Sequence record: PZ495249.1
Length of the DNA: 64,000 nucleotides
From: a phage
Direction: 5' to 3' (one strand)
The notes beneath the pieces are model-generated. The model was not told the origin of the DNA and did not search any database. It saw nothing but the letters and a program-made list of their open reading frames with translations. Position numbers and translations under genes: made by a program. Shown piece by piece: positions 3,778 to 39,365 of the stretch (its first letter is position 1; each line of letters opens with the position of its first letter).

Positions 3778-3929
3778 AACTACGTATCACTGATATCCGA
3801 GCGTTTGACAACTATCACATAGCCTTGTCAATTCTTGGCGCACATAATGTAGGTGATGTGTTGGAGTATAACGAACATATGCCTATCTTCGATATCTTGA
3901 TCGAAAAAGGTTGGGTGCAAAAGGTATGA
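3774..3929 (+). CDS. hypothetical protein (51 aa)
   Basis: Track ORF 3714..3929 trimmed to ATG at 3774 after GGAGGAAG. Confidence 0.4.
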   Translation: MKLRITDIRAFDNYHIALSILGAHNVGDVLEYNEHMPIFDILIEKGWVQKV

Positions 3930-4270
3930 GAATCTGGCTTGATGATTTACGTGATCCAAGAGATTACGGATACCCTGATGCCATCTGGGTTAAAAACTCC
4001 ATTGATTTCAAGCTGCAACTTATTGATTGTCTGCTTATGGAAGATGATGGTGATAGCCTGGTAGCGATCCACTTTGACAACGATATTGGAGAAAAGACCG
4101 AAGGTTATCACCTCTTCTTAAAAGTGGAGGAGATCATTCATGCTGGAAAATTCAAGGGCTTGAAAGAAATCTTTGTCCATACGTCGAATTCAGGGGCGGC
4201 TCAGAAATTTATGCTTGCAAAAGACGGGTTAGCTCGTTATGATGTGAACATAATTCGTAAATACTATTGA
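3926..4270 (+). CDS. hypothetical protein
   Basis: Track ORF 3911..4270 trimmed to ATG at 3926 (ATGA coupling). Confidence 0.5.
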   Translation: MRIWLDDLRDPRDYGYPDAIWVKNSIDFKLQLIDCLLMEDDGDSLVAIHFDNDIGEKTEGYHLFLKVEEIIHAGKFKGLKEIFVHTSNSGAAQKFMLAKDGLARYDVNIIRKYY

Positions 4271-4281
4271 GGAGAGATAAC

Positions 4282-4449
4282 ATGTGGAGCACACCATCAA
4301 GAGGCCAACTGCCTAACCAAAACGAAGTTGTTGTGGCTGTCAGTCCAGAGGGTAAGGAATTGGAGATGTACCGAATTGGCAATCTGTGGTTCCCTGTCGG
4401 TGACACATGTTATGTCTACTGGACACCTGTAATGTGGAGGAATAAGTAA
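4282..4449 (+). CDS. hypothetical protein (55 aa)
   Basis: Track ORF 4267..4449 trimmed to ATG at 4282 after GAGGAGAG. Confidence 0.4.
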   Translation: MWSTPSRGQLPNQNEVVVAVSPEGKELEMYRIGNLWFPVGDTCYVYWTPVMWRNK

Positions 4450-5012
4450 TGTTTGTGACGAGTGATCGCCACTTCTGGCATGATAAAGTGCTGGATTTTC
4501 AGGCGCATACCCGCCCATTCTCTGATTTAGAAGAGATGCATGAGGCATATATTAAAGAGTGGAACGCCTGTGCAACCAAACCTGGGGTGAAAATGTTCCA
4601 CTTGGGAGATTTCAGTTTTGGTCTTCAAGACCAGACAGAAGAAATCTGCAAGCGTTTGCAGGGTGATATCACCTTCATCGTTGGCAACCATGACCGCAGC
4701 TATACCCGTTCCGTAATGGAAAAGTATGGGCGTGTCGTCTGGTATGATGAAGTGAAATATCAGAAACACTTCTTTGTATTGAGCCACTACCCTATGCTCA
4801 CCTGGAACAAATCCCACAAGGGGAGTATCATGTTACATGGTCACGAGCATGGCAACTTGGTGCATCTCGAAGAGGAGCGTGGTAAAACTATGGATGTGGG
4901 CGTAGACGTTCACGGTCGCTTCTTACATTTCGATGAAATCATTGAGATTATGAAAGACCGTCCTATGCGCATGGATCATCGTAAATTTAGAGGGGAGGAT
5001 ATTATCCGATGA
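4449..5012 (+). CDS. calcineurin-like metallophosphoesterase
   Basis: Track ORF; GDFSFG, GNHDRSY, GHEHG metal-binding motifs. Confidence 0.65.
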   Translation: MFVTSDRHFWHDKVLDFQAHTRPFSDLEEMHEAYIKEWNACATKPGVKMFHLGDFSFGLQDQTEEICKRLQGDITFIVGNHDRSYTRSVMEKYGRVVWYDEVKYQKHFFVLSHYPMLTWNKSHKGSIMLHGHEHGNLVHLEEERGKTMDVGVDVHGRFLHFDEIIEIMKDRPMRMDHRKFRGEDIIR

Positions 5013-5169
5013 GTACAATTTATATACTGTTTGCTCTGTTCACCTACGGTGAGAGTAACAGTTCTTTTGATAAGGAATTCAACTCACAAGGTGCTTGTAT
5101 CATGGCTATGAATGAAGGTGTCAGTAAGCGGATATTTACCCGCGCAATGTGCGTACCGAAGGGCTGATT

Positions 5170-5412
5170 ATGCGTATACCTGATGATTTTTATACCCACG
5201 AAGATACGTGGAGAAAGGCTCTTGAGCGTCTGATCGAACTGGAGCCAGTAACGGGTGAACCTGATGAAGATAACAGAGGGTTCTGGCAACATGAATTGAA
5301 TGCGTTCAACCGCGCCTATGCAGAACTTCATGAAGGTTGTCCTCATGATGGCGCTACCTACTATGATATGAGTGGGCGTGAACGCTGCGGAATGTGTGGA
5401 GGTGACATGTGA
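5170..5412 (+). CDS. hypothetical Cys-containing protein
   Basis: Track ORF 5149..5412 trimmed to ATG at 5170. Confidence 0.45.
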   Translation: MRIPDDFYTHEDTWRKALERLIELEPVTGEPDEDNRGFWQHELNAFNRAYAELHEGCPHDGATYYDMSGRERCGMCGGDM

Positions 5413-5600
5413 GTACACTGAAACGTGGAGACACTGTTATGTTGAAATTCCCATTAGGTGGTACTTGGAGAAAACTTCTTCTGGTAGAACAAACACCGTA
5501 CTTGGATAATAAAGTCGATGTAATCTACTTTGATACGCAAGAACGTATTTGTCGTGATCGCCTCCACATTGATCTTGTAGAGAAAGTAGGAGAAGATTAA
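5409..5600 (+). CDS. hypothetical protein
   Basis: Track ORF. Confidence 0.45.
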   Translation: MSTLKRGDTVMLKFPLGGTWRKLLLVEQTPYLDNKVDVIYFDTQERICRDRLHIDLVEKVGED

Positions 5601-24779: not shown

Positions 24780-25532
24780 ATGGGAAATAAACCAGCAAAG
24801 TCTCCACGTCAGAAGCTGGCTGCTAATGACCAGAGACAAAGCCGTTATGCGGCGAAAGCTGTGGGGAACGATGACTACCGTCTTGACGAATTCTATCCAA
24901 CCGAGGCTCAGGAAGAGATTGTGCATAGCATGGTCTGGAATGACCTTACGATTGTGAATGGACGTGCAGGTACTGGTAAGACAACAACCGCTCTGTGGAA
25001 AGCGTTACAAATGCTGAAAGCAGGTGATGTACGAAAACTGCTCTTCCTGAAAAACCCAACTGAGGTGGGTGACGATCAGATTGGTTTCTTATCTGGTGAC
25101 AAGTCAGAAAAACTGACTGCGCACTACGAGTCTACCAAACGAATTTTCCAGCAATTCATGACCGCAAACAAACTGGAAACAGATATTGCTAACGGTAAAA
25201 TCGAACTAAACATTCCTAACTACGCACTGGGCGCTACCTGGGATAACACAATCATCCTGATTGACGAATCTCAGTTAATGTCTCCCGATACCATCAAGCT
25301 CCTTCTGGAACGTACTGGTATCAACTCTCGTGTTGTCGTTATCGGTGACGTGAAACAAACTTATGCTATCAAACATCGTAAAAACGGACTCGCAGATCTT
25401 GTAGATCGTGTAGCTCCGGCTGATGAAGACGGCTATCACACACCTGTAACCGACTTTATCGGATACGTTGAACTGTCAAGCGATGAGAACCAGCGTTCAC
25501 GTCTGTCTCAGTTCATCACGGAAATTTATTAA
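24780..25532 (+). CDS. phoH: PhoH-like ATPase
   Basis: Track ORF; Walker A GRAGTGKTTTAL. Confidence 0.85.
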   Translation: MGNKPAKSPRQKLAANDQRQSRYAAKAVGNDDYRLDEFYPTEAQEEIVHSMVWNDLTIVNGRAGTGKTTTALWKALQMLKAGDVRKLLFLKNPTEVGDDQIGFLSGDKSEKLTAHYESTKRIFQQFMTANKLETDIANGKIELNIPNYALGATWDNTIILIDESQLMSPDTIKLLLERTGINSRVVVIGDVKQTYAIKHRKNGLADLVDRVAPADEDGYHTPVTDFIGYVELSSDENQRSRLSQFITEIY

Positions 25533-25569
25533 TTTAACAAGGCAGGGAAGCCACTTTTATGGAGGATAA

Positions 25570-26061
25570 ATGGCATTTGTTGAAATAGGTAGAAGCGGTA
25601 TTGACGAGTGTTACCAAGCGGGTTTAGTAAAGCCGAACGAGTTCCGGCAGATTTATGTAAACAAGATTGAACAAGAGATCGCTCTCTTACTTGAAAACCT
25701 AACACTTAAACAAAAGTGGGGAATGTTCAAATCTTGGTTAAAGAATGAGGATTGGATTTTATCCCATTACCAGGAACTTTCTGATAGTAAAGACGGACTG
25801 TTTGAGTGTATAATAGAGATAGCCGCCTCAAATCCACAACTTCTTCATATTGATGAAGAAGATTCCAAACTACTTTTCCTAAGCAGTATTTTCCACAAGA
25901 AATCCTTACTCGTTCGAGAGTGCAGTGATTTATTTAATCACCCGCTCACCCGTACCGAGAAGATTCTGGTGGACAAAGAAACGTTACGCGCAATTGACTA
26001 TCTACGAAAATACGTGAACGGTGGAAAAGCAGTTCTTAAAACATTGCAGGAGGAAGAATAA
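25570..26061 (+). CDS. hypothetical protein
   Basis: Track ORF. Confidence 0.5.
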   Translation: MAFVEIGRSGIDECYQAGLVKPNEFRQIYVNKIEQEIALLLENLTLKQKWGMFKSWLKNEDWILSHYQELSDSKDGLFECIIEIAASNPQLLHIDEEDSKLLFLSSIFHKKSLLVRECSDLFNHPLTRTEKILVDKETLRAIDYLRKYVNGGKAVLKTLQEEE

Positions 26062-26750
26062 TGACAACGATTATTGCAACAAAGACTAAGATTCTAAGCG
26101 ACGGTAAAACTACCGTAGGCAATCGTGTAGACGATTACGACTTTAAGAAAGTACGTAAGATTGGGGATTATCTGGTCGGTGGCGCTGGTCGTCTAACCTC
26201 CATCCTCACATTCTTCGCCTGGTTTGAGCAGAATCTGCAATGTCAAGCGGCACAAGAATCTATCCCAGGGTTGATGATTCAATCAGATCCTGACAAGGAC
26301 GACGAAGACTTCATTGCGTTAGTTGTCCATCCTGACGGTAAAATTTTCATCCACGAAGGTGCTGATCCTCGTCGAGCATTCCCAATCGAGCGTGAATACT
26401 ACGCTGTTGGTAGTGGTGCAGACTTCGCATTAGCGGCGCTTGATGCCGGAGCCACTCCAGAACAAGCAATGGAAGTTGCAAAACTCCGTGATGCTTTCTC
26501 GGGTGGTGAAACTTTCGTAGAAGAACGCGAAGAAATTGTTGACATTACTGATGAAGATCTGAGAAACTTCTCAAGAGAGCAGCTTCTGAATCTGCTTCTT
26601 ACTGGTTCTCCAGAAGGTGATGCAGCACAACAGTTGCTGGCTACGCCGGAAGAAGAACATCCTAAAGGTGATACTGGTGAAATGGGAGTTTCTTGTGGTA
26701 TTCCTGGTGTTGCAGGTGCTACTTTTACAACTCCTTCACTGGGCGCTTAA
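26061..26750 (+). CDS. HslV/ClpQ-like Ntn-hydrolase peptidase with C-terminal extension
   Basis: Track ORF; MTTIIATK...DG.TTVGN...KKVRKIG...GGAG and AVGSGADFALAA match HslV (recalled). Confidence 0.7.
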   Translation: MTTIIATKTKILSDGKTTVGNRVDDYDFKKVRKIGDYLVGGAGRLTSILTFFAWFEQNLQCQAAQESIPGLMIQSDPDKDDEDFIALVVHPDGKIFIHEGADPRRAFPIEREYYAVGSGADFALAALDAGATPEQAMEVAKLRDAFSGGETFVEEREEIVDITDEDLRNFSREQLLNLLLTGSPEGDAAQQLLATPEEEHPKGDTGEMGVSCGIPGVAGATFTTPSLGA

Positions 26751-26756
26751 TACTAT

Positions 26757-26775
26757 GCCCCTTCGGGGGCTTTTA
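26757..26775 (+). terminator. GC hairpin, weak terminator
   Basis: GCCCCTTCGGGGGCTTTT. Confidence 0.45.
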
Positions 26776-26785
26776 AGGAGGAGAT

Positions 26786-27226
26786 ATGTTAGAAATTCCA
26801 GCTTCATTCATGGATAAGAACGTCCATGCATACCAGCAAATCTGTAAGCGAGCAAAGAATACACTGGATGCTATTGTCAGCAAACGTTATGTCATTTCTG
26901 AAAAGAAATGGTTCCGTACTATTCACTACGAAGTGAACGTTTTCGGTGAATGCAAACACAGAACAGGATCTACCGAGAGAATTCTGGAATGGATGCTTGA
27001 AAACGACCATATTTCCTCTCAAGACTATCAACTGCTCAAGTTCTACGACATGTCCAACATGGTAGATATTGTCATCGACAATCTCCAGGAACGCCGTAAC
27101 GAGAGCGATAAGGTGTCTGTGAATATGGATGAAATGCAACTCCTGTATTACATTGGAACGTTCACAGAAGACCCCACTTTAACGAAAGAGGAACTTCTTT
27201 TTGGCGAACAAGTACGACCGACCTGA
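26786..27226 (+). CDS. hypothetical protein
   Basis: Track ORF with AAGGAGGAG RBS. Confidence 0.5.
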   Translation: MLEIPASFMDKNVHAYQQICKRAKNTLDAIVSKRYVISEKKWFRTIHYEVNVFGECKHRTGSTERILEWMLENDHISSQDYQLLKFYDMSNMVDIVIDNLQERRNESDKVSVNMDEMQLLYYIGTFTEDPTLTKEELLFGEQVRPT

Positions 27227-27710
27227 GTCGGATTATTACCCAACACCACAAAAGTGTATTGAAGCACTGTTCAGTGTTATTGATTTTAAAAATTTGAGAG
27301 AAGAGGGTTGGCACTTTGCCGAGCCATGCCGAGGGGAAGCATCTGCGATTTATCAGCACTTCCCCGAAGGTTCAGAATATTGCGAGTTAGAAGAGGGTAA
27401 AGATTACTTTGCCAGTGTATGGGAAACCAAACCGGACATTATAATCACAAACCCTCCATTCAAACTGGCATTAGAGTTCTTGCAAAAGAGCTTACAAGAA
27501 GCAGACGTATCTATCTACCTGTTACGTTTGGGATTTCTGGAATCTAAGAAACGTCGAGATTTCCATAAAGCCAACCCTCCAACCAACTTGATTATTCTCT
27601 CTGAGCGACCATCGTTTGTTGCGGGTGGCACAGACAAGACAGCGTATGCCTGGTACGTCTATGATCCAAAACAAAGGCTTGGGCTTACCCAACCTTTCTA
27701 TTTTGTATAA
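27201..27710 (+). CDS. phage-type DNA N6-adenine methyltransferase-like
   Basis: Track ORF (TTG start); SDYYPTP and NPPF motifs. Confidence 0.55.
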   Translation: MANKYDRPESDYYPTPQKCIEALFSVIDFKNLREEGWHFAEPCRGEASAIYQHFPEGSEYCELEEGKDYFASVWETKPDIIITNPPFKLALEFLQKSLQEADVSIYLLRLGFLESKKRRDFHKANPPTNLIILSERPSFVAGGTDKTAYAWYVYDPKQRLGLTQPFYFV

Positions 27711-27719
27711 GGATGATTA

Positions 27720-27923
27720 ATGGCCTACAACTACTATCTTGTGTATGTTCACGAGAACACGAAAGAAGACACTGGAACGAACGTCTACGCTGAGTCGGAA
27801 GACCATGCAAAGGCTATCGGGGCAGTTCTTCTTACACGCATGACAGGGGAAGAATTTACATCGGCTGATGTTTACGCAGAAGTAGATCCTGATATGCAAG
27901 AAGATGATATCACAACCACTTGA
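27720..27923 (+). CDS. hypothetical acidic protein
   Basis: Track ORF. Confidence 0.45.
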   Translation: MAYNYYLVYVHENTKEDTGTNVYAESEDHAKAIGAVLLTRMTGEEFTSADVYAEVDPDMQEDDITTT

Positions 27924-27948
27924 CAATAGTTTTGTGTTAGTGCATACT
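27920..27948 (+). promoter_or_regulatory. sigma70-like promoter
   Basis: TTGACA-17nt-CATACT upstream of recombinase gene. Confidence 0.5.
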
Positions 27949-27973
27949 CATTGAAACAGCATAGGAGGGTGTC

Positions 27974-28636
27974 ATGAAATTCGTACTTTACCATCGTCTT
28001 TCCAAAAAGAAACAGCAAGGCAACCAATACGGTATTGAATCACAGGAAGTTGATATTCAACGTTTCCTGGACTCGCAAGAGAACTATACCGTGATCGGGA
28101 CTTTCGCTGAATACTACTCTGGTAAAGGTGACTGGAAGCAACGTAGAGAACTGGTGAAAGCCGTGGAACTCTGCAAAGCAACTGGTGCAACACTTGTGGT
28201 TGCAAAGGTTGACCGTTTAGGTCGTAACACTGCCTCAGTTGCAACGCTTCTCGAAATGGTGAATGTTCGTATTGCTACGATGCCCTCCGCTGAGAATATG
28301 GTGATTAATATCCTCGCCGTTCTCGCAGAAGAAGAAGCACGAGCGATCTCTGATCGTGTGAGAAAAAGTTTGAAAGTTGCCAAAGAGAAAGGTATACTCC
28401 TTGGTGCTGCAAATGAAAAATACAATCGTACAGATTACTCTAAGAGAGAGGAATCAAAGCGCTCTATGGAATTTGCCATGAGCATGAAAGATTCCCTTGT
28501 TGCTTTCCGTTCAATGAACACACCGTTCATGACAATTGCAAAGCATCTTAACGAAAGCGGTAAAACTACTATCCGAGGCAGCAAGTTTGATGCGAAAGCT
28601 GTCCAGCGCTTATGTTCTAAGTTAGAAATCAACTGA
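27974..28636 (+). CDS. serine recombinase (resolvase/invertase family)
   Basis: Track ORF; YHRLSKKKQ...GIESQ catalytic-Ser region, VAKVDRLGRN, C-terminal HTH-like segment. Confidence 0.7.
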   Translation: MKFVLYHRLSKKKQQGNQYGIESQEVDIQRFLDSQENYTVIGTFAEYYSGKGDWKQRRELVKAVELCKATGATLVVAKVDRLGRNTASVATLLEMVNVRIATMPSAENMVINILAVLAEEEARAISDRVRKSLKVAKEKGILLGAANEKYNRTDYSKREESKRSMEFAMSMKDSLVAFRSMNTPFMTIAKHLNESGKTTIRGSKFDAKAVQRLCSKLEIN

Positions 28637-31337: not shown

Positions 31338-31866
31338 TGCATATCAAAGGGGCGGTGCTCGCCCCAATATCAGTGAGATGTATAGTCCGGTTGTCGATTT
31401 AACACCAATGATCACTAAACGTGTTATGGATACTATCGAGAAAGGTACATGGGTGGTGAGTGATAAGATTGAGTTTCGTTATCACAAGACGATTGTTGCT
31501 GTTAGTGACAATGGCGCGGCAATGAATGTTCCATTCTATCCCTTGGATAAGACTCTCACTCAAGAAGAGATTGAGGAAATTAACCTCCACGTCCTGGGTT
31601 ATGTCCCATTTGAGAATACGGTCATCCAGACCTACACCACTCTAATGGTAAATGAGATCCTACGCGCAATTACCCGTGTCTTGGATGAGGGTGTAAGAAA
31701 AATCATCGTACATTTCTGTCCCGCTGATACACCGGAATATGCTAACACTGTGGCTTATCCGCTGTATGGTTTTATTGCTAATGGTGTTCTTCAAATGGAA
31801 ACTTCTTTCCTGATTGAAGAAATAAAAAATGACTTTTCTGTTGACATAGATCAAGGTGGTTGGTAA
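31330..31866 (+). CDS. hypothetical protein
   Basis: Track ORF. Confidence 0.5.
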   Translation: MLDAYQRGGARPNISEMYSPVVDLTPMITKRVMDTIEKGTWVVSDKIEFRYHKTIVAVSDNGAAMNVPFYPLDKTLTQEEIEEINLHVLGYVPFENTVIQTYTTLMVNEILRAITRVLDEGVRKIIVHFCPADTPEYANTVAYPLYGFIANGVLQMETSFLIEEIKNDFSVDIDQGGW

Positions 31867-32052
31867 ACTCTTCGGAAATTGTCAATAACAACTGGAGGTA
31901 AGAGATGAAAACGACAGAACAACTGATCGCGCAGAAACTGGAAGAAGCAATTGTGATGGCTCGTGCTGAGGGCTTAGGTCAAAACTATTTCAACATCACC
32001 CTCGAAGATGGTGAAAATGTTGAAGTGAACGTTCAATGGCGATCTTCTTCCT

Positions 32053-32346
32053 ATGACTGCTAATGTGGGATTAGAACACTCCTTCCTTGCCTCTTGGCAA
32101 GGATGGGATGAAGTGGGAAGTGCAGGTGATCTTTGCTTCTATGGTTGCACTTTAGCGAACCACCTGAAAGGGATGGAGCCAGAGGGAACCAAGGAGATTA
32201 TTACAATCTTCCTGATGAGTGAGTCAACTGTGCAATTTGACTTCTACGGTGAGAGCGCGTTTTCTGACCCTCGTGATGCTTACTTGGGAAGCAAAGCATT
32301 TAAAATTAAAGCAGTATTAGAAGAGGAGATTCCTTGCGATGAGTAA
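32053..32346 (+). CDS. hypothetical protein
   Basis: Track ORF. Confidence 0.45.
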   Translation: MTANVGLEHSFLASWQGWDEVGSAGDLCFYGCTLANHLKGMEPEGTKEIITIFLMSESTVQFDFYGESAFSDPRDAYLGSKAFKIKAVLEEEIPCDE

Positions 32347-32758
32347 ATATGTAACTGGTCAAATTTTTGAAGACAACTGGGATGACGAAGTGGGGCGTAT
32401 TGTATACGCTAACGGCATCTGGTCTAACGATGAAGACCGCGCTGCCTTTGAAGATTCGTATGGCGGAATGCCGGACGATATGCCAGAGGTGATCCTGTAC
32501 GAATTCATGTACCATGATGAATTTGTCGAGGGCGAAGCAGCGATCAAAGATTTTGTTCGTGAGCATGGCCTTATCGACGTTGCAGAGCGTGAGTGTAAAG
32601 ATCGAGAACGCCAAGTGATTGTTGATACCCTGAATGCAATGGGCGTAGATACCGCCGATCTGATTGTTTCAGAAGGTCGTGTTTACATGGGGAGCGACGA
32701 GTGTGAAGCCTATATTCAAGGCAGTCATGCTTGGTGTTCAAGTAGCATGATTTGCTAA
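32339..32758 (+). CDS. hypothetical acidic protein, paralog family with C-terminal W-x-SSS-x-C motif
   Basis: Track ORF; ends HAWCSSSMIC. Confidence 0.5.
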   Translation: MSKYVTGQIFEDNWDDEVGRIVYANGIWSNDEDRAAFEDSYGGMPDDMPEVILYEFMYHDEFVEGEAAIKDFVREHGLIDVAERECKDRERQVIVDTLNAMGVDTADLIVSEGRVYMGSDECEAYIQGSHAWCSSSMIC

Positions 32759-32767
32759 GGAGAGTGG

Positions 32768-33202
32768 ATGTATAATAACACTGATAATCTCGAAGTCGGA
32801 AAAGACTTCTACGATCTGAATACTGGTGAGTATGTCTTTACCGTTATTTATGATGGTGACGACGACACCCGCATCCTGGTAGAAGGTATCCCAACAAAGG
32901 TGCAGAGTCAGTATAGTGATTACATGTATGATATCGTGGCATACAATAAGGACACTATGCACCCTTTAGACGAAGATGATGTGAACGATATTTGTTACAA
33001 CAATTTGATTGTCACAAAGGAATATCTGGACGCCATCAATGCCACGAAACAAGTATTGATTAATATCTGGGAACAATCTGGTATTCAAGAACCATTCGTG
33101 TATGAAGATGGGAATTTCTATGTTGGTAAAGAACAAGTTCTTTCAGCCCACATTAATTCCGGCTACGAACACGGTTGGATTTCGAGTAGTATCTGCTGGT
33201 GA
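32768..33202 (+). CDS. hypothetical acidic protein, same paralog family
   Basis: Track ORF; ends HGWISSSICW. Confidence 0.5.
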   Translation: MYNNTDNLEVGKDFYDLNTGEYVFTVIYDGDDDTRILVEGIPTKVQSQYSDYMYDIVAYNKDTMHPLDEDDVNDICYNNLIVTKEYLDAINATKQVLINIWEQSGIQEPFVYEDGNFYVGKEQVLSAHINSGYEHGWISSSICW

Positions 33203-33426
33203 GTGTTGGAACTGTAGCGGTATGGATAAAGTCTGAATCTGGTGATGATTATCTGTACTGCTTTGAGAACCAATCCTTAGAGCAAATTTCCAACAATCTG
33301 ACAGAGAACCTGGAAATGTTTTGCCCTATTTGTGATTGGAAAACTACCGGAGACAATAAAGACTTCGTTAGTGATGTTAAGATGTTTATGTCGGATTTAT
33401 ATGATAAATCATGGGAGAGAGAATGA
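33199..33426 (+). CDS. hypothetical protein
   Basis: Track ORF. Confidence 0.45.
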   Translation: MSVGTVAVWIKSESGDDYLYCFENQSLEQISNNLTENLEMFCPICDWKTTGDNKDFVSDVKMFMSDLYDKSWERE

Positions 33427-33617
33427 GTGAATTTAAAACAGTAAGTGAAGCAGTGGCAGCGGCAAATGCTGCCCTCGCTGAGGCAGAACGCCTATCTCTG
33501 GAAACAGGTGAAGGGTTTGGTTTCCATCCGTGTTATGGTATGGGCGGTTACTTCGATCCAGAAGAAGAAAACGAGTACACTGGGGATCACTGGTTCCCAT
33601 CTTCACTGGGTTGCTAA
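33411..33617 (+). CDS. hypothetical protein, same paralog family (short)
   Basis: Track ORF; ends HWFPSSLGC. Confidence 0.45.
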   Translation: MGERMSEFKTVSEAVAAANAALAEAERLSLETGEGFGFHPCYGMGGYFDPEEENEYTGDHWFPSSLGC

Positions 33618-33973
33618 TGCAGCCATTTGAGTGTAAAGTGTTTATTGCAGGGCATGAAGTTATGCCCTTTGATGAAAACGTGAGTATTGAGATAAGGAGA
33701 ACACCTGTGGACAAGAAAGAAATTGAAAACCTGATCCGTGAAAAAACTGCTGCTGCCGAAGCCTACATGCAGTCTGTGAAAGACGAAGTGGCTGAACTGG
33801 CAGATAAAGCTGGCGTTCAGGCTTATTGGGGCGAATATGGTAGCGGTGAAACCTACTACCCTGTTGGTACAGATGTAAATGCCGAATACATCGGTTGGGA
33901 AGCGAGTGAGTATGCAGATGAGAACGGTATCCTGACTCAAGGTATGTGGATCTCTTCAAGCTCTATGTGCTAA
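33617..33973 (+). CDS. hypothetical acidic protein, same paralog family
   Basis: Track ORF 33530..33973 trimmed to ATG at 33617; ends GMWISSSSMC. Confidence 0.5.
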   Translation: MQPFECKVFIAGHEVMPFDENVSIEIRRTPVDKKEIENLIREKTAAAEAYMQSVKDEVAELADKAGVQAYWGEYGSGETYYPVGTDVNAEYIGWEASEYADENGILTQGMWISSSSMC

Positions 33974-33986
33974 GAGTGTAACTATT

Positions 33987-34010
33987 AACCCGCTTCGGCG
34001 GGTTTTTTAT
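33987..34010 (+). terminator. rho-independent terminator (same hairpin as 11916)
   Basis: AACCCGCTTCGGCGGGTTTTTTATTG. Confidence 0.7.
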
Positions 34011-34020
34011 TGCCTGAGTA

Positions 34021-34049
34021 TTGACACGTTAATCAAAACCTGGTAAACT
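34021..34049 (+). promoter_or_regulatory. sigma70-like promoter
   Basis: TTGACA-17nt-TAAACT. Confidence 0.55.
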
Positions 34050-34079
34050 CTGGGAATCATTTAAGAGAGGAGAAACATT

Positions 34080-35009
34080 ATGATTATGGTTGGTAGCCGT
34101 GGTTTAGAGATTCAATTAGAACGGGAGGCTAAGAAATTTTATCGCCCTTGTCTTGATCTTGACTTTCTTTGCACAGAGAAGGAGTGGAGTATAGCATTCA
34201 TCCGTTACACCCACGAAGAAGGCGTTGAGCTTGTGGAACGTACTGGCAACAAAGGTCATGTCAAACTGACAGATGGGACACATATCGAGTTTGATATTGC
34301 TCAACCTGGCGATAGCACAGATATTCTGATCCAATATTGCAAGGCAAACCCACAGAGTATGTTCCTTAACAACGGTGATTTCGTGGCTCCGGTGGATGTT
34401 CTGTATCTGCTGAAAATGAGTCATCGTTATAAGAAGAATAGCCCTCATTTCTTCAAGACCATGAATGATATCCATTTCATGCGTTCTCTTGGGGCTAAGA
34501 TCCCAGTGGAATTAGAAGAAGTGTTTAAGCTGCGTGAGAAAGAGACTTACGATTACTCACACCCAAATCTGGATGTGAAGAGCAAAGACTTCTTCAAAGG
34601 TGATGAAGTGCCGTATGTTTACGATCACGACACGATTCATGAAGCAGTGGCGGTGTTGGGTGTACCTGCATACAAATCTTACATGAAAGATGACAGCGAA
34701 GTGATGACTTCCAAAGAGAAGTTCTTTGAACAGGAAAATCATATCCGTCTTCTCGGTGTGTACGAAGAGAGCTGCGTACTGGCACTGGAACGTTCGCAGA
34801 TTCCGTTCAATTTCGAGGTTCCGGCTCGTCAGAGTTTTGTTATGGCACTTAGTAAAGTTTGCACATCGATCACTTCCGGCTGGTTCCGTGAGTACGCCTG
34901 GGAGAACTTCGGGGTTGTCATGAAGTTCTATGAAAGCATGGGTGAAACTGATTACATTGAGCGATTCAAAGCTAATCAACACCTGGTTAAACCATTCGAG
35001 GGGGAATAA
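34080..35009 (+). CDS. hypothetical protein (309 aa)
   Basis: Track ORF with GAGAGGAGAAAC RBS; no confident domain. Confidence 0.5.
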   Translation: MIMVGSRGLEIQLEREAKKFYRPCLDLDFLCTEKEWSIAFIRYTHEEGVELVERTGNKGHVKLTDGTHIEFDIAQPGDSTDILIQYCKANPQSMFLNNGDFVAPVDVLYLLKMSHRYKKNSPHFFKTMNDIHFMRSLGAKIPVELEEVFKLREKETYDYSHPNLDVKSKDFFKGDEVPYVYDHDTIHEAVAVLGVPAYKSYMKDDSEVMTSKEKFFEQENHIRLLGVYEESCVLALERSQIPFNFEVPARQSFVMALSKVCTSITSGWFREYAWENFGVVMKFYESMGETDYIERFKANQHLVKPFEGE

Positions 35010-35399
35010 ATGGGTTATTTAAATGATACATACATCACACCTACTAAGGATCAATTAAGTATGGCTCTTATTAAGGTGAAACGTGTGCGCGAACTCTACA
35101 AACCAATTAATGAGCGTTTGGAGAAGGAGACAGTAGAGGTTAAAAGTTGGTGGGGTTTACGCCGTAAGGTGATGACTAAAGATCAGCACATCCGTAAAGC
35201 TAACGAAAATTCTTTCATGCCGTTTTATGGTCGTGCATTTCTGCTCGGATACATAACAGCAGAAGAATACCAAATCTGCCGTTTCCTGATGGAGGCTCCA
35301 GGAGTGAAGACACTCCAAAAATGGGAAACAGCGGAGAGAGTATATCTTTGTGAAGATGACCACAGACAGTTGATGTTTGCTTTAACTGAGGAGATTTAA
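35010..35399 (+). CDS. hypothetical protein
   Basis: Track ORF. Confidence 0.5.
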   Translation: MGYLNDTYITPTKDQLSMALIKVKRVRELYKPINERLEKETVEVKSWWGLRRKVMTKDQHIRKANENSFMPFYGRAFLLGYITAEEYQICRFLMEAPGVKTLQKWETAERVYLCEDDHRQLMFALTEEI

Positions 35400-36076
35400 T
35401 GTCGAAAGTAGTATGGTGTTTATTTGATGGTAGTGGTATTATGGGATTACCCTGGGCTGAGGCTGGATACCAAGTTTATTGCTTTAATGCCAGTAGCGGA
35501 GATCACGGAGAGTATGAAATTAAAGTGGATCACCCTTTGATCACTTACGTCGATACTTGGATTGACTCTACCTTTGATCCAACAGGTATGGGTGACAACG
35601 GCGGTGATGCTCCTACGTTTATTATCGGCTTCCCGCCTTGTACAATGCTCGCTGGTAGTGGAGAGCAACACGAGCGTACTGCGGAAGAGATCGAAGAGGC
35701 GCTTCAAAACGTCCGTATCGTCGAAACTTTGGGTAATAAGTATGGTGTGCCGTGGATGATTGAGAATCCAGTGGGTAAATTGTCCACACTCTGGCGTAAG
35801 CCGGACTACTACTTCGATCCGTATGAGTTTGGTGGTTATCTCCGAAAAGAGGAAGGTAGTTATCACCCTAAAATGCCAGTACAGGATGCCTATACGAAGA
35901 AAACCTGCCTATGGGTAGGCAATGGTTTCGTATTCCCTGATAAAAAACCCGTAGAACATATTGGTTTCTTCTGGGGATGGCGTTATCTCGGTGGTAAGAG
36001 TAATCGAACAAAACAGTTGCGATCTCTCACCCCTCGTGGGTTTGCTCGCGCAGTGTTTAAGGCTAATAGGAGGTAG
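35399..36076 (+). CDS. compact C5-cytosine methyltransferase-like protein
   Basis: Track ORF; LFDGSGIMG (motif I-like), GFPPC (Pro-Cys motif IV), ENPVG (motif VI); only 225 aa. Confidence 0.5.
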   Translation: MSKVVWCLFDGSGIMGLPWAEAGYQVYCFNASSGDHGEYEIKVDHPLITYVDTWIDSTFDPTGMGDNGGDAPTFIIGFPPCTMLAGSGEQHERTAEEIEEALQNVRIVETLGNKYGVPWMIENPVGKLSTLWRKPDYYFDPYEFGGYLRKEEGSYHPKMPVQDAYTKKTCLWVGNGFVFPDKKPVEHIGFFWGWRYLGGKSNRTKQLRSLTPRGFARAVFKANRR

Positions 36077-36077
36077 T

Positions 36078-36191
36078 ATGTGGAGAGGGTGGCAGGGCGC
36101 ACTGATTCTTGTGTGCATACCAATTAGTTTTCTTGGTTGGGCTTTTTGGGAATTTGTATTCTGGTTGTTCCACAACTTACATTGGGGGTGA
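36078..36191 (+). CDS. small hydrophobic membrane protein (37 aa)
   Basis: Track ORF 35961..36191 trimmed to ATG at 36078 after AGGAGG. Confidence 0.35.
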   Translation: MWRGWQGALILVCIPISFLGWAFWEFVFWLFHNLHWG

Positions 36192-36193
36192 AA

Positions 36194-36835
36194 ATGACAA
36201 AGAAACTGGTGGCGTATCAAGTTGATCGGGACGATTACGAAGGTAGTGTAATTGTTTTTGACTCTCACGGCTTGGCTGCTCGCCGCCGTGGGGCTTCGAT
36301 GTTAGACCTTGGCGGAGAAGATGAGTATTGCCAGGTAAGACGTGTAAAAGATTTCGATCAATATGCGGAAAAGGGCTACGTTCCTTATAAGGCTTTGCTG
36401 GAACATGGTTGGTGGTTACACTCGGCTCATGATGGTCGAAAAATCACAGAGGACTACTGCTACGATGAATACGAGGACGAGGAGGTAGAAACACCTGAAC
36501 TTGTCTTCTTCCAGAACGAGCAGGGTGTGTGGTTTGATTGGGATGAAATGGAACGCCATGCCTATTCTATTAACGAAGCAAAAGATCGCTTTGATTGGTG
36601 GATTGAAACGGTTATGCGTTGCTACCCACATCTTACCTTCACTAAGTTTGAAGGTGGACCTGGACGTATTACTCACACAGCCAACTTCACCTTCCCTGGT
36701 GCTCAGTATGGCGGTGGTCACATCCGTTGGGATTGGGAGGAAGGTGTAACACCAGATCCTAAAGAACATTTCTCCAGTTGGGTTGCCACAGGAGATAAAG
36801 AAGCATTTGACAAGTACCTCGAAAGTGTGGTATAG
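36194..36835 (+). CDS. hypothetical protein
   Basis: Track ORF 36137..36835 trimmed to ATG at 36194. Confidence 0.5.
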   Translation: MTKKLVAYQVDRDDYEGSVIVFDSHGLAARRRGASMLDLGGEDEYCQVRRVKDFDQYAEKGYVPYKALLEHGWWLHSAHDGRKITEDYCYDEYEDEEVETPELVFFQNEQGVWFDWDEMERHAYSINEAKDRFDWWIETVMRCYPHLTFTKFEGGPGRITHTANFTFPGAQYGGGHIRWDWEEGVTPDPKEHFSSWVATGDKEAFDKYLESVV

Positions 36836-36851
36836 TGCTTGAAATTAATCT

Positions 36852-36875
36852 AAGCCCCTTGATTGGGGCTTTATT
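36852..36875 (+). terminator. GC hairpin, weak terminator
   Basis: AAGCCCCTTGATTGGGGCTTTATT. Confidence 0.45.
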
Positions 36876-36889
36876 CGTATGGAGGATTT

Positions 36890-37450
36890 ATGGGATTTGA
36901 TGACATGTTGGACTATGAGGGAAACTGCGTTAAAGAAGCTCTGGCCTTACCAGAACTGGAGATCACCATCACAGTGTATGACACTTATTCCGATTGTGAA
37001 ACTTGCGGTGCATACTGGAGCAGAGTTCTTGAAGTAGATGGAGACTTAGGGGAATTCCAGAGTGGTGATCGTGCAAGTTGTTTGGGTAGTAATGATGACG
37101 GTACTTATCACGAAGTTGCTCAATGGATTAACGCGCGACTTGAAGAGCATGGTCGTCCTGTTCCTGTACTATTGACACCGGATGCAATGCTGCAAGCTGA
37201 TAACGAGTATTACGCTCAAGCGGCTTTGGTGAACTATGATTATAATCATCCTTCGCTTGAGGCATTAGGACATAAAGCAGGTTGTCTGTCAGATGCTTTT
37301 GATGCATACTATACGTTAGACAGTCTGAAACGATTGTATTCTGCATTCGGTGTGACCATTTATGATGATCACAAGGCAGATGAGGTTTACGATGCCAGCG
37401 ATTGGGGCGATTATGAAGATAATGAGGAAGAAGAATGCCAAGACGACTGA
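36890..37450 (+). CDS. hypothetical acidic protein
   Basis: Track ORF 36863..37450 trimmed to ATG at 36890 after GGAGGA. Confidence 0.5.
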   Translation: MGFDDMLDYEGNCVKEALALPELEITITVYDTYSDCETCGAYWSRVLEVDGDLGEFQSGDRASCLGSNDDGTYHEVAQWINARLEEHGRPVPVLLTPDAMLQADNEYYAQAALVNYDYNHPSLEALGHKAGCLSDAFDAYYTLDSLKRLYSAFGVTIYDDHKADEVYDASDWGDYEDNEEEECQDD

Positions 37451-38250
37451 TTGTAATTTCTGGTGCAGGACTTAGCGCCGATAGTGGTGTACGTACATTC
37501 CGTACCGACACCGAAAGTGGAAAAGCACTTTGGGACGAATACGATCTTGCAGAGGTTTGTGATATTGGAGCATTCCAAGCTGGCTATCGTCGCCGTACAT
37601 CACCAGATGTTCCGGTTGTTGGTGGTATCGACGATGAAGGGATGGATCTGTACGAGAAGACAAACAACTTCTACAACAAACGCCGTGTGGAACTTGCAAC
37701 TGTAGAGCCTAACGCTGCACACCTTCAAATCGCTAAGTGGTTTGCAATGGCTCCTGAGCGTGTCTACAACATCACGACTAACGTTGATGACCTGTTGGAA
37801 CGTGCTGGCGTTGCTCGTGAATCTGTACTTCACGTCCACGGCTACTTACCAGAAATCCGTTATCGCTTAGAACCTGGTTCACAGGAACAACTTGTGGATG
37901 TAGGGTACGCTCATGTCGATATTGACGCATTCCATTGGACAAAACCTAACGTTGTGTTCTTTGGTGAGGCTGCACCACTCTATAATGACATGTACGCACT
38001 GTTCGACACGCTAACATCTCAGGATATGGTGATTGTGGTTGGCTGCTCTAACCAAGTGATCAACTTCAACTGGGAACTCTTCCCGATGCTTAACATCGGA
38101 ACTAAGATGGTTGTGGTGAACCCTGGGGTTAACTACCTGGAGACAGAAATGTATCAAGAACGGGGCGTGTTTGTTTATCGCGCCGGAGCCGCAGAAGCGT
38201 TCAGCAATGAGCACTTCATTAAGATGGTAGAGGATCACCTGAATGGTTAG
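37435..38250 (+). CDS. SIR2-family (sirtuin/CobB-like) NAD+-dependent protein lacking the Zn-ribbon cysteines
   Basis: Track ORF; GAGLSADSGVRTFR, PNAAHLQIAKW, TTNVDDLLERAG, HVHGY, VVFFGE align with CobB (recalled); no CxxC pairs. Confidence 0.75.
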   Translation: MPRRLIVISGAGLSADSGVRTFRTDTESGKALWDEYDLAEVCDIGAFQAGYRRRTSPDVPVVGGIDDEGMDLYEKTNNFYNKRRVELATVEPNAAHLQIAKWFAMAPERVYNITTNVDDLLERAGVARESVLHVHGYLPEIRYRLEPGSQEQLVDVGYAHVDIDAFHWTKPNVVFFGEAAPLYNDMYALFDTLTSQDMVIVVGCSNQVINFNWELFPMLNIGTKMVVVNPGVNYLETEMYQERGVFVYRAGAAEAFSNEHFIKMVEDHLNG

Positions 38251-38424
38251 TTGCTGTGAAGACAGTGATTTACATCCTTCGGATTGTTTCGACGATCCAA
38301 ACGAAGGATACGCCCACAACGTATCAATGTGCTATAATTGTGGGGCTATTGTAATAGATAGAGTTTGGTTGAACAGTGGGAGAACTATTGTGAAGTCAAA
38401 CGGGGAAGTTTTACAATCTTAAAC

Positions 38425-38446
38425 AAGGGGCGTAAGCCCCTTTCTT
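38425..38446 (+). terminator. GC hairpin, weak terminator
   Basis: AAGGGGCGTAAGCCCCTTTCTT. Confidence 0.45.
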
Positions 38447-38460
38447 ATTGGAGAAATAAT

Positions 38461-38718
38461 ATGACTGACAAATTAGTGAAAGACTTTTATATGATGCACT
38501 ACGTGTACTACTGGAATGATGGTACTAATCGTGGAGAAGGAAACCTCTACCTGGAAACACAAACGGGTACAGGTGTTAGAAAAGAACATATTGATGGGGC
38601 AATTGATCACGTCACCGTGGGATTGGTTAACAACTTGGGCGCTAACAGCGTTGTTGTCGTTCCTACCGGAATATTCTATCTCACCTCTTGCACACCAGAA
38701 GAATTTAACCACTCCTAA
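38461..38718 (+). CDS. hypothetical protein (85 aa)
   Basis: Track ORF 38365..38718 trimmed to ATG at 38461. Confidence 0.45.
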   Translation: MTDKLVKDFYMMHYVYYWNDGTNRGEGNLYLETQTGTGVRKEHIDGAIDHVTVGLVNNLGANSVVVVPTGIFYLTSCTPEEFNHS

Positions 38719-38786
38719 AACTCTCTAAAACGCTCTGTGGGCGTTTTTAATCGTAACTGGTACATCGGTTCATCTTATATATAGAA

Positions 38787-38820
38787 AAGCCCTCAGAAAC
38801 GCTCTGAGGGCTTTATTTTT
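38787..38820 (+). terminator. bidirectional terminator at convergent junction
   Basis: AAGCCCTCAGAAACGCTCTGAGGGCTTTATTTTT; weaker hairpin at 38728-38750; T/A runs on both sides. Confidence 0.65.
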
Positions 38821-38892
38821 ACTCATCTATGAACACACCTATGATTAACATGACCAAGATGATCATTGTAATCACTCCATCCCAGTACCCCA

Positions 38893-39123
38893 TCAATCTA
38901 AACCTTTCGCATAGAGTTCTACAACCAGTTCATCTTCATGCGTGATCCTGGCTATCTGTCGATCACGAAGGAACACTGTCTGGTAATGATGAATTTCGCT
39001 ACACAGGATACATTCCCACAATCCATCTTTCATTTGCTGGTTTACATGTACCTTTACCGGAAACGGGTGAGGGTTGTCCACCAGAAACGCCATACACCCT
39101 TCTTTAATCTCTGACATAATCAC
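38893..39123 (-). CDS. hypothetical protein
   Basis: Track ORF. Confidence 0.45.
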   Translation of the reverse strand: MIMSEIKEGCMAFLVDNPHPFPVKVHVNQQMKDGLWECILCSEIHHYQTVFLRDRQIARITHEDELVVELYAKGLD

Positions 39124-39342: not shown

Positions 39343-39365
39343 AAAAAAACCCGCCGAAGCGGGTT
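39343..39365 (-). terminator. rho-independent terminator (same hairpin as 11916/33987, minus strand)
   Basis: Plus strand AAAAAAACCCGCCGAAGCGGGTT. Confidence 0.65.

Follow-up and report, generated by a model that had tools for sequence, protein, structure and literature searches.

The block of nine genes at positions 34021–38814 (+ strand) of a 64,000 nucleotide (nt) stretch of the phage record PZ495249.1, the whole of which is referred to here as the window, is probably a mosaic of phage accessory genes that move independently of one another, and not one dedicated system, and this is the best supported of the readings considered. Genes are gained and lost between related phages, one gene, encoding a sirtuin, has been swapped for another allele, and three genes of the block (g1, g3 and g7) lie scattered across other genomes. 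Hence, the block was interpreted as a mosaic accessory block of independent genes.

Nine + strand open reading frames (ORFs), each with a GGAG-type ribosome-binding site, fill the block, in agreement with the count of about nine in a preliminary description of this DNA, and they are designated g1 to g9 from left to right. The three for which a function can be proposed are g1 (34080–35009; 309 amino acids, aa), with a nucleotidyltransferase fold made up of a DUF7277 core and a DUF7275 helical domain, g3 (35399–36076; 225 aa), a minimal C5-cytosine methyltransferase-like protein assigned to phrog_757, and g7 (37435–38250; 271 aa), a CobB-like class III sirtuin belonging to a phage clade.

The source phage is an enterobacterial myophage of approximately 150 kb belonging to the Stephanstirmvirinae (phi92/Justusliebigvirus-like). 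Among annotated records, positions 34000–38850 are best matched by the Klebsiella phages FKP3 (GenBank accession number PP895363), KP13-26 (OP617743) and phi1_175008 (PQ360875), all classified in the Stephanstirmvirinae, which share 80–84 % nt identity over 52–75 % of the query. The GC skew of the window is positive to approximately 38.8 kb and negative beyond, and the ORFs flip from the + to the − strand at the same point; therefore, the block is the last of the rightward arm, and forms the terminal block of a rightward early/middle gene arm. The possibility that it is a compositional island was rejected, as its GC content of 0.43–0.46 falls within the range of the window. A scan of the window against Rfam found no RNA family.

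In KP13-26, FKP3 and phi1_175008 the block also lies at the end of the rightward arm and has the same promoter and terminators and the core genes g1, g3, g5 and g7, whereas g4, g8 and g9 are additional in the window, as are g2 and g6 in comparison with some of these phages. Overall, the relatives differ from one another by the presence or absence of g2, g4, g6, g8 and g9 and by an inserted HNH gene. The KP13-26 block consists of g1, g3, two small ORFs, g5 and g7. FKP3 lacks g2, includes the extra HNH gene, and has a different small membrane ORF together with a small Cys-rich ORF in the slot occupied by g4, while phi1_175008 lacks g6. The closest metagenomic relative (L069/L004) lacks g4, g8 and a small ORF 5′ of the block, and two phi92-like loci (L070 and L071) lack g1 and have a canonical methyltransferase in place of g3. 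The g2 gene is dispensable in relatives, and g9 is absent from several of them. The sirtuin gene adds a different kind of variation. The sirtuin shares only 79 % protein identity with its counterpart in L069/L004 though the neighbouring proteins share 97–100 %, and it is 93 % identical to the sirtuin of KP13-26, which indicates a recent allelic exchange limited to the sirtuin gene.

Beyond this lineage, the three enzyme genes part company. The g3 gene is found alone in phage contigs of approximately 45–50 kb, and its family has some 1,500 phage records (this and the other phage-record counts are out of 50,697 records) that include T1-like phages and Dhillonvirus. Sirtuin genes related to g7 occur without other block genes within approximately 6–8 kb in T5-like and Vequintavirinae loci, and g1 is found in T4-like, jumbo and actinophage genomes. 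Where they share a genome they can be far apart, with g1, g3 and g7 separated by 30–80 kb in other phages; a single 153 kb contig has g7, g1 and g3 at 55, 85 and 122 kb, respectively, and another has g7 and g3 at 10 and 92 kb.

Some linkage weighs against full independence of the genes. In 7-11-like phages of the unrelated Grimontviridae (L065:5301–6747, L107 and L112), g3 and g7 are immediate neighbours, the g3 homologue (42–43 % identity) overlapping the 5′ end of the gene for the sirtuin homologue (51–53 % identity), and the order g1-g3-g5-g7 persists at 33–62 % aa identity in L022/L114 and L008/L113. Such recurrent linkage may reflect a functional connection between the genes. Six of the nine proteins give no functional clue. 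The g3 protein appears to be without motif X, has no Pfam match at E<0.1 (PF00145 is not reached) and no sequence or profile match in the Protein Data Bank (PDB), and its methylation activity and substrate are predictions, as are the use of the promoters and the timing of expression.

Assignment of g3 to the C5-cytosine methyltransferases (MTases) depends mainly on a comparison with an enzyme that takes its place elsewhere. In the phi92-like locus L071 (5677–6666 in IMGVR_UViG_2974717474_000001), a canonical full-length C5 MTase of 329 aa (PF00145, E 1.3e-43) fills the exact g3 slot, between the homologues of g2 and g5, and the two MTase types have thus been swapped in position. When the g3 family and this enzyme were aligned using hhalign, motifs I, IV and VI were in register over 118 columns (E 0.0018). 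Motif I of g3 is FDGSG (FxGxG), in which G11, S12 and G13 are nearly invariant, and it aligns with SLFDGMSGG of the PF00145 enzyme. Motif IV is FPPCT, with F78, P79 and C81 invariant, and aligns with GSPCQ of the PF00145 enzyme and with GFPCQ of Dcm, and motif VI is ENPVG, with E122, N123, P124 and V125 invariant and one Pro inserted, which aligns with LENV. The predicted fold is also that of a C5 MTase. The Dcm protein of E. coli had been tried as the comparator and was set aside, as hhalign aligned motif IV only, with a probability of 1.3 %, and the phage PF00145 enzyme was the better choice. The earlier characterization of g3 as a compact C5-MTase-like protein with Pro-Cys and ENV-like motifs and little room for a target-recognition domain was accurate.

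At 225 aa versus approximately 330 aa, the g3 protein is shorter than its closest known counterparts, the C5-cytosine DNA MTases (PF00145; DNMT3B, M.HhaI, the prophage MTase 3g7u and the C5-carboxymethyltransferase 8yf3). Approximately 90 residues follow motif VI, versus approximately 200 in the canonical 329 aa enzyme, leaving almost no target-recognition domain, and neither a GNxxxxP motif nor a clear motif X was seen in the g3 protein. The compact form, of 215–240 aa, is typical of the family, which comprises approximately 2,580 clusters. Nearly all of the best 120 homologues listed are of 210–242 aa, and only one of these 120 carries a precomputed PF00145 match. Searches of NCBIfam gave no match for g3, and PADLOC, a library of defence-system proteins, gave one weak match to a Type II MTase. 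The 1,510 phage records of the family include T1-like Drexlerviridae, Dhillonvirus, Vequintavirinae and some T4-like phages, and the proteins are usually annotated as Dcm-like methylases.

Judging from the motifs and the positional swap, g3 most likely encodes a minimal C5-cytosine MTase that does the same job as the L071 enzyme, namely DNA cytosine methylation, with a relaxed or very short specificity. It would methylate cytosines of the phage DNA in a short or relaxed context and might give partial, enzyme-specific protection from restriction. A more radical view is that g3 is no ordinary site-specific DNA MTase, being either a near-nonspecific or dinucleotide-level cytosine modifier or a partner of the sirtuin, beside which it recurs in Grimontviridae, and of the MenT-fold g1 protein that acts on RNA or DNA ends in a new NAD+-linked modification or repair route; we consider this a long shot. 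A second short 'DNA methyltransferase' gene lies elsewhere in the window, at 27201–27710 (+). Its 169 aa product gave no match in Pfam and covers only positions 204–372 of phrog_799, which has 458 positions, and it is conserved in FKP3 (82 % identity). The gene may encode a methyltransferase that has been truncated or split.

The g1 protein matches DUF7277 (residues 1–87) and DUF7275 (residues 107–294) and nothing else in Pfam, and sequence or profile searches of the PDB gave no significant match. In an alignment of 41 homologues, residues G5, S6, D26, D28 and E70 are invariant. The pattern hG[GS]...DxD...E is the signature of the Pol-beta nucleotidyltransferase superfamily. An AlphaFold model of g1 is confident (pLDDT 89), and in Foldseek searches the first match was MenT1 (probability 1.0), followed by CCA-adding enzymes, PolX and CD-NTases, and no match, MenT1 included, reaches E≤0.001. 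With both the Pol-beta catalytic residues and the fold in place, the g1 protein is, on the evidence of the model, a nucleotidyltransferase with a Pol-beta/MenT-like fold. The best structural matches, the MenT/AbiEii (DUF1814) toxins and the small antibiotic nucleotidyltransferases ANT(2″) and LnuA, share with g1 an N-terminal Pol-beta core (hG[GS]...DxD...E) followed by a helical domain, but the identity is only 7–15 % and the C-terminal DUF7275 domain of g1 is larger. Unlike MenT/AbiEii, g1 has no Pfam DUF1814 match and no antitoxin partner, and a promoter lies directly 5′. The adjacent g2 was evaluated as an antitoxin and rejected, as g1 is found without g2 in FKP3, KP13-26 and L067, and g2 is found without g1 in L070 and L071. 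The suggestion, based on conserved His and Asp residues, that the C-terminal domain is an HD phosphohydrolase was also dropped, since neither structural nor profile support was found for it.

The g1 family includes 2,404 clusters and 734 phage records, among them T4-like phages, Otagovirus, and jumbo and actinobacterial phages, and a few of the 734 are already annotated as a nucleotidyltransferase. In many T4-like phages, tblastn aligns only the DUF7275 part of g1, and DUF7275 is not mentioned in any paper found in our literature search. The g1 enzyme would add nucleotides to an RNA 3′ end, possibly that of a tRNA-like molecule, or to a small molecule.

For the g7 product, the preliminary description as a zinc-less SIR2 protein was confirmed. 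It matches Pfam SIR2 (PF02146) with 76.1 bits against a cutoff of 24, and among solved structures it is nearest to E. coli CobB (1s5p, E 2e-17). The NCBIfam models that it matches are all of the CobB type, though all of the scores are under the equivalog cutoffs (the best being 99 bits versus 243). In nine diverse members of the family, GAGxS..SG..FR, TTNVDDL, HG and FGE are invariant, as are the NAD-binding and catalytic residues S9–G12, N116, D118 and H135. The pair Y80-x-x-R83 is also kept in all nine and aligns with the FYNARR segment of CobB. In CobB and SIRT5, this Tyr/Arg pair recognizes acidic acyl groups. The g7 protein shares the catalytic residues and Y-x-x-R with CobB/SIRT5 but is without their zinc-binding cysteines: residues 137–170, which correspond to the Cys-ligand segment of CobB, include no Cys in g7 nor in any of the nine family members. 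It is a single-domain protein of 271 aa with no sensor fusion, and in PADLOC it had no match at E<0.1, and so none to a SIR2 model of the defence NADases (ThsA, DSR, Sir2-HerA and SPARSA); hence, it is not a SIR2 protein of the Thoeris, DSR or HerA type. Going by its conserved residues, g7 is a catalytically intact, zinc-less CobB-like sirtuin of a widespread phage clade. The family has 978 phage records, from T5-like, Vequintavirinae, Stephanstirmvirinae, 7-11-like, Vibrio and jumbo phages, and the orthologues in Vequintavirinae and T5-like phages share 47–64 % identity with g7.

The g7 protein belongs to the phage sirtuin clade (rV5, Mydo and SP15) that was predicted, from gene neighbourhoods, to remove 2′-phosphates from RNA in the course of RNA repair (Iyer et al. 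2022, PMC9503650). We found no experimental study of a phage-encoded sirtuin in the literature. The enzyme would consume NAD+, either to strip acidic acyl groups from lysines or, as predicted by Iyer et al., to transfer ADP-ribose to an RNA 2′-phosphate. A phosphoribosyl pyrophosphate (PRPP) synthetase-like gene is present in the window at 980–1915 (−), and in FKP3 (L003:1–1808) a gene for nicotinamide phosphoribosyltransferase (NAMPT) lies beside its counterpart. Given this gene and the NAMPT and PRPP synthetase encoded by relatives, an NAD+ salvage module shares the genome with the NAD+-consuming sirtuin, and the phage itself plausibly supplies the NAD+ that the sirtuin uses.

The prediction of Iyer et al. 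leads to an explanation in which the block, instead of being a mosaic, would encode a coherent NAD+-dependent pathway for RNA (tRNA) repair or modification that counters host nucleases cutting the anticodon or acceptor stem. In such a pathway the sirtuin would remove 2′-phosphates, as KptA does, g1 would rebuild tRNA 3′ ends and g3 would act on tRNA in the manner of Dnmt2. The folds closest to that of g1 fit, as the tRNA 3′ end is the target of both MenT toxins and CCA-adding enzymes, and the Tyr/Arg pair of a class III sirtuin would bind an anionic group. The recurrence of g3 and g7 as neighbours in Grimontviridae and the position of the Vequintavirinae sirtuin orthologue, beside genes for RNA ligase, polynucleotide kinase, phosphoesterase and MazG, are also consistent with it. 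We confirmed the RNA-repair neighbourhood in the phages DrSchubert and 4MG, where the genes are phosphoesterase, kinase, RNA ligase, sirtuin, DNA ligase and MazG. The neighbourhood described by Iyer et al. is not found around g7, which lies approximately 30 kb from the genes for cREC, phosphoesterase, DNA ligase and MazG. Though that cluster is kept in the window (cREC, PF20274, at 3911–4270, phosphoesterase at 4449–5012, a DNA ligase gene and a MazG-like gene), the interval 5012–5600 gave no tblastn match to an Rnl1-like RNA ligase or to a small ATPase/kinase and is approximately 0.9 kb shorter than that of relatives, and both genes are present at the syntenic site, between the phosphoesterase and DNA ligase genes, in FKP3 and KP13-26 (L003:6385–7921 and L214:3503–4827). 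The replacement of g3 by a canonical DNA C5 MTase in the same slot of phi92-like phages and the dispersal of g1, g3 and g7 in other genomes also argue against a joint pathway, which we consider decidedly improbable.

The remaining six genes are g2, g4, g5, g6, g8 and g9. The 129 aa g2 product (35010–35399) is basic (pI 8.5) and belongs to phrog_16551, a PHROG of unknown function, g4 (36078–36191) encodes a hydrophobic peptide of 37 aa with a grand average of hydropathy of +0.87, and g8 (38243–38422) is a putative ORF for a Cys-rich protein of 59 aa with no homologue in any locus compared. The 85 aa product of g9 (38461–38718), which lies between two terminator hairpins, is in phrog_15991, also a PHROG of unknown function. 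The g5 and g6 proteins are the acidic proteins noted in the preliminary description. The g5 ORF (36194–36835, with an ATG start at 36194; phrog_8514) encodes 213 aa with a net charge of −20, and g6 (36890–37450, with an ATG start at 36890; phrog_9509) encodes 186 aa with a net charge of −34 and a pI of 4.05. Both are lineage-restricted orphans with no Pfam match and no significant PDB match in single-sequence or profile searches. The g5 family consists of only 21 clusters, and g5 accompanies the sirtuin gene in every relative that keeps this block. An exhaustive HMMER search of 1.84 billion proteins found 11 representatives of g6, none of which provided a functional clue. Together, the products of these six genes would be host-takeover-type proteins that are confined to the lineage and are small, acidic or membrane-located.

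The preliminary description had left the choice between an accessory and an anti-defence island open. The first part stands, as gene gain and loss and the sirtuin swap identify an accessory, variable block, while for the second part no match to a known anti-defence family was found for any of the nine proteins in Pfam, PHROGs, NCBIfam or PADLOC, so that a role of this kind can only be conjectured. An anti-defence reading may be a reasonable prior for variable early phage genes, and in its strongest form the block would be a dedicated counter-defence island, in which the MTase blocks restriction and the sirtuin, the nucleotidyltransferase and the acidic proteins neutralize NAD+- or nucleotide-based defences (Thoeris, DSR, CBASS and Avs), for example with g6 acting as a DNA mimic or with the proteins or signals of the defence being modified. 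Gene content that varies between close relatives, with small-ORF insertions and deletions and an allele swap, is typical of arms-race loci, and the consensus host-type promoters suggest early expression. The net charge of −34 over the 186 aa of g6 is comparable to that of DNA-mimic anti-restriction proteins, and the NAD+ salvage enzymes encoded by relatives, NAMPT and PRPP synthetase, also favour this reading. Set against this, beyond the sirtuin and the weak Type II MTase match of g3, which was the sole PADLOC match, NCBIfam and PADLOC returned nothing for the block proteins. The sirtuin belongs to a conserved, housekeeping-like phage clade of 978 records, and no homology of g5 or g6 to a characterized protein was detected. 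Although g3 could protect against restriction, Vequintavirinae and phi92-like phages were exceptionally sensitive to restriction-modification systems in the BASEL study (PMC8594841), where MTase content was not predictive of resistance in Drexlerviridae. A dedicated counter-defence island is, on balance, unlikely, and a mosaic of separately acquired genes accounts better for the block.

The transcription signals also required a revision of the preliminary description. A consensus promoter at 34021, a strong bidirectional terminator at 38787 and hairpin terminators on both flanks had been described, and all of these were found at the stated positions or close to them. However, the block is not the single promoter-to-terminator unit that had been proposed, as an internal promoter at 36807 and hairpins at 36852, 38425 and 38727 subdivide it. 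On the left flank, an intrinsic terminator at 33987–34010 (+) closes the preceding operon and consists of a hairpin at 33987–34004, AACCCGCTTCGGCGGGTT, followed by a run of T (predicted free energy, ΔG, −11.8); the hairpin is invariant in seven of seven relatives. The identical 18 nt hairpin, AACCCGCTTCGGCGGGTT, recurs in inverted orientation at 39365–39348 (−), approximately 5.4 kb from the copy at 33987–34004 (+), and the two flank the block.

The first promoter, P1 (34021–34049, +), begins 17 nt past the left hairpin, reads TTGACA-17-TGgTAAACT with a 10/12 match to the consensus and a TG two bases before the −10 hexamer, and has a predicted start near 34056. In six of seven related loci both hexamers are kept while the 17 nt spacer differs almost completely, and from the sequence comparison this pattern appears decisive, and stronger evidence than the match to the consensus. 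A second site with hexamers identical to those of P1 (TTGACA-17-TAAACT) is located at 31841–31869 (+), just 5′ of the run of small ORFs beginning at 31905, and probably drives the preceding operon. The internal promoter, P2 (36807–36836, +; TTGACA-18-TATAGT, with a predicted start near 36843), overlaps the g5 stop codon. It is a better match to the consensus (11/12) than P1 and is invariant in seven of seven relatives, including two with only approximately 65–73 % nt identity in this region. It is followed, between g5 and g6, by a hairpin at 36852–36871 (+; ΔG −13.0, z −3.8) that has a weak U tail and is conserved in relatives with variation in the stem and loop. This hairpin is a candidate attenuator of P1 transcripts and would form a 5′ stem on P2 transcripts.

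Three further hairpins lie at the right end of the block. The first (38425–38448, +; hairpin 38425–38442, ΔG −13.1) is a terminator conserved in FKP3, phi1_175008 and L005, and in relatives that lack g8 and g9 it is directly 3′ of the sirtuin gene; therefore, g8 and g9 are interpreted as insertions among stacked terminators. The second (38727–38752, +; hairpin 38727–38748, AAAACGCTC...GGGCGTTTTT; ΔG −8.9, z −3.6) is partly conserved. The last, the convergence terminator at 38786–38814, coincides with the switch in GC skew and coding strand and has a 12 bp stem with ΔG of −20.3 (+) and −19.8 (−) and a z of approximately −5.5, and is conserved in relatives. Judged by its position it serves both arms, though the minus strand has a weaker U tail and the terminator scan listed the hairpin on the + strand only. 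Abutting it is the last gene of the leftward arm, a hydrophobic mini-ORF of 25 aa at 38819–38896 (−; MMGYWDGVITMIILVMLIIGVFIDE) that ends at 38819, and FKP3 and phi1_175008 have an annotated 93 bp ORF at the same place.

Host sigma-70 RNA polymerase would thus transcribe the block from at least two conserved promoters, with P1 (34021) driving g1–g5 and P2 (36807) driving g6–g9, and three tandem hairpins, the last being the convergence terminator at 38786, would end the arm. As predicted from these signals, the region is at least two nested transcription units and not one simple unit. The alternative, that the bracketing by promoter and terminator is coincidental and the region is merely read through within a long early transcript, could be argued from the weak U tails of the internal hairpins and from the number of promoter-like sites in 32–41 kb, which at 13 versus 16.5±3.8 in shuffled sequences indicates that a consensus match alone is not above chance. 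Yet matches of at least 10/12 are approximately two-fold enriched over the whole window (28 versus 14.6±4.6 in shuffles), the hexamers of P1 and P2 have been retained where the spacers and flanks have diverged, a terminator lies immediately 5′ of P1, and the final hairpin is strong and conserved. Coincidental bracketing is, thus, very improbable.

Two groups of genes upstream of the block deserve mention. Just 5′ of it, seven small acidic ORFs (pI 4.1–4.3) occupy 31905–33973 (+), and five of the seven share a C-terminal tail of the form W-x-S-S-(S)-x-(x)-C (WRSSSYDC, WCSSSMIC, WISSSICW, WFPSSLGC and WISSSSMC). Two of them match only the C-terminal third of phrog_899, and from their sequences the tail-bearing ORFs look like paralogues that share a conserved module at the C-terminus. 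Further upstream in the same arm (24780–28636, +) are a PhoH-like gene (24780–25532), an HslV/proteasome-like gene (26061–26750) and a serine-recombinase/resolvase-like gene (27974–28636), and a recombinase domain is unexpected in a virulent myophage.

Taken as a locus, this mosaic accessory block, which closes a gene arm and has annotated homologues in Klebsiella phages already published, is unremarkable. Its interest lies in drawing attention to three phage families that are very widespread, the zinc-less sirtuin (978 records), the C5 MTase that lacks a target-recognition domain (1,510 records) and the DUF7277/DUF7275 nucleotidyltransferase (734 records), for none of which a published functional test was found in the literature. 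Biochemical characterization of any of the three would annotate hundreds of therapeutic-phage genomes. It would also bear on why phi92-like phages stay sensitive to restriction despite encoding methyltransferases, and on the benefit to a virus of an enzyme that consumes NAD+ in hosts that defend themselves by destroying NAD+.

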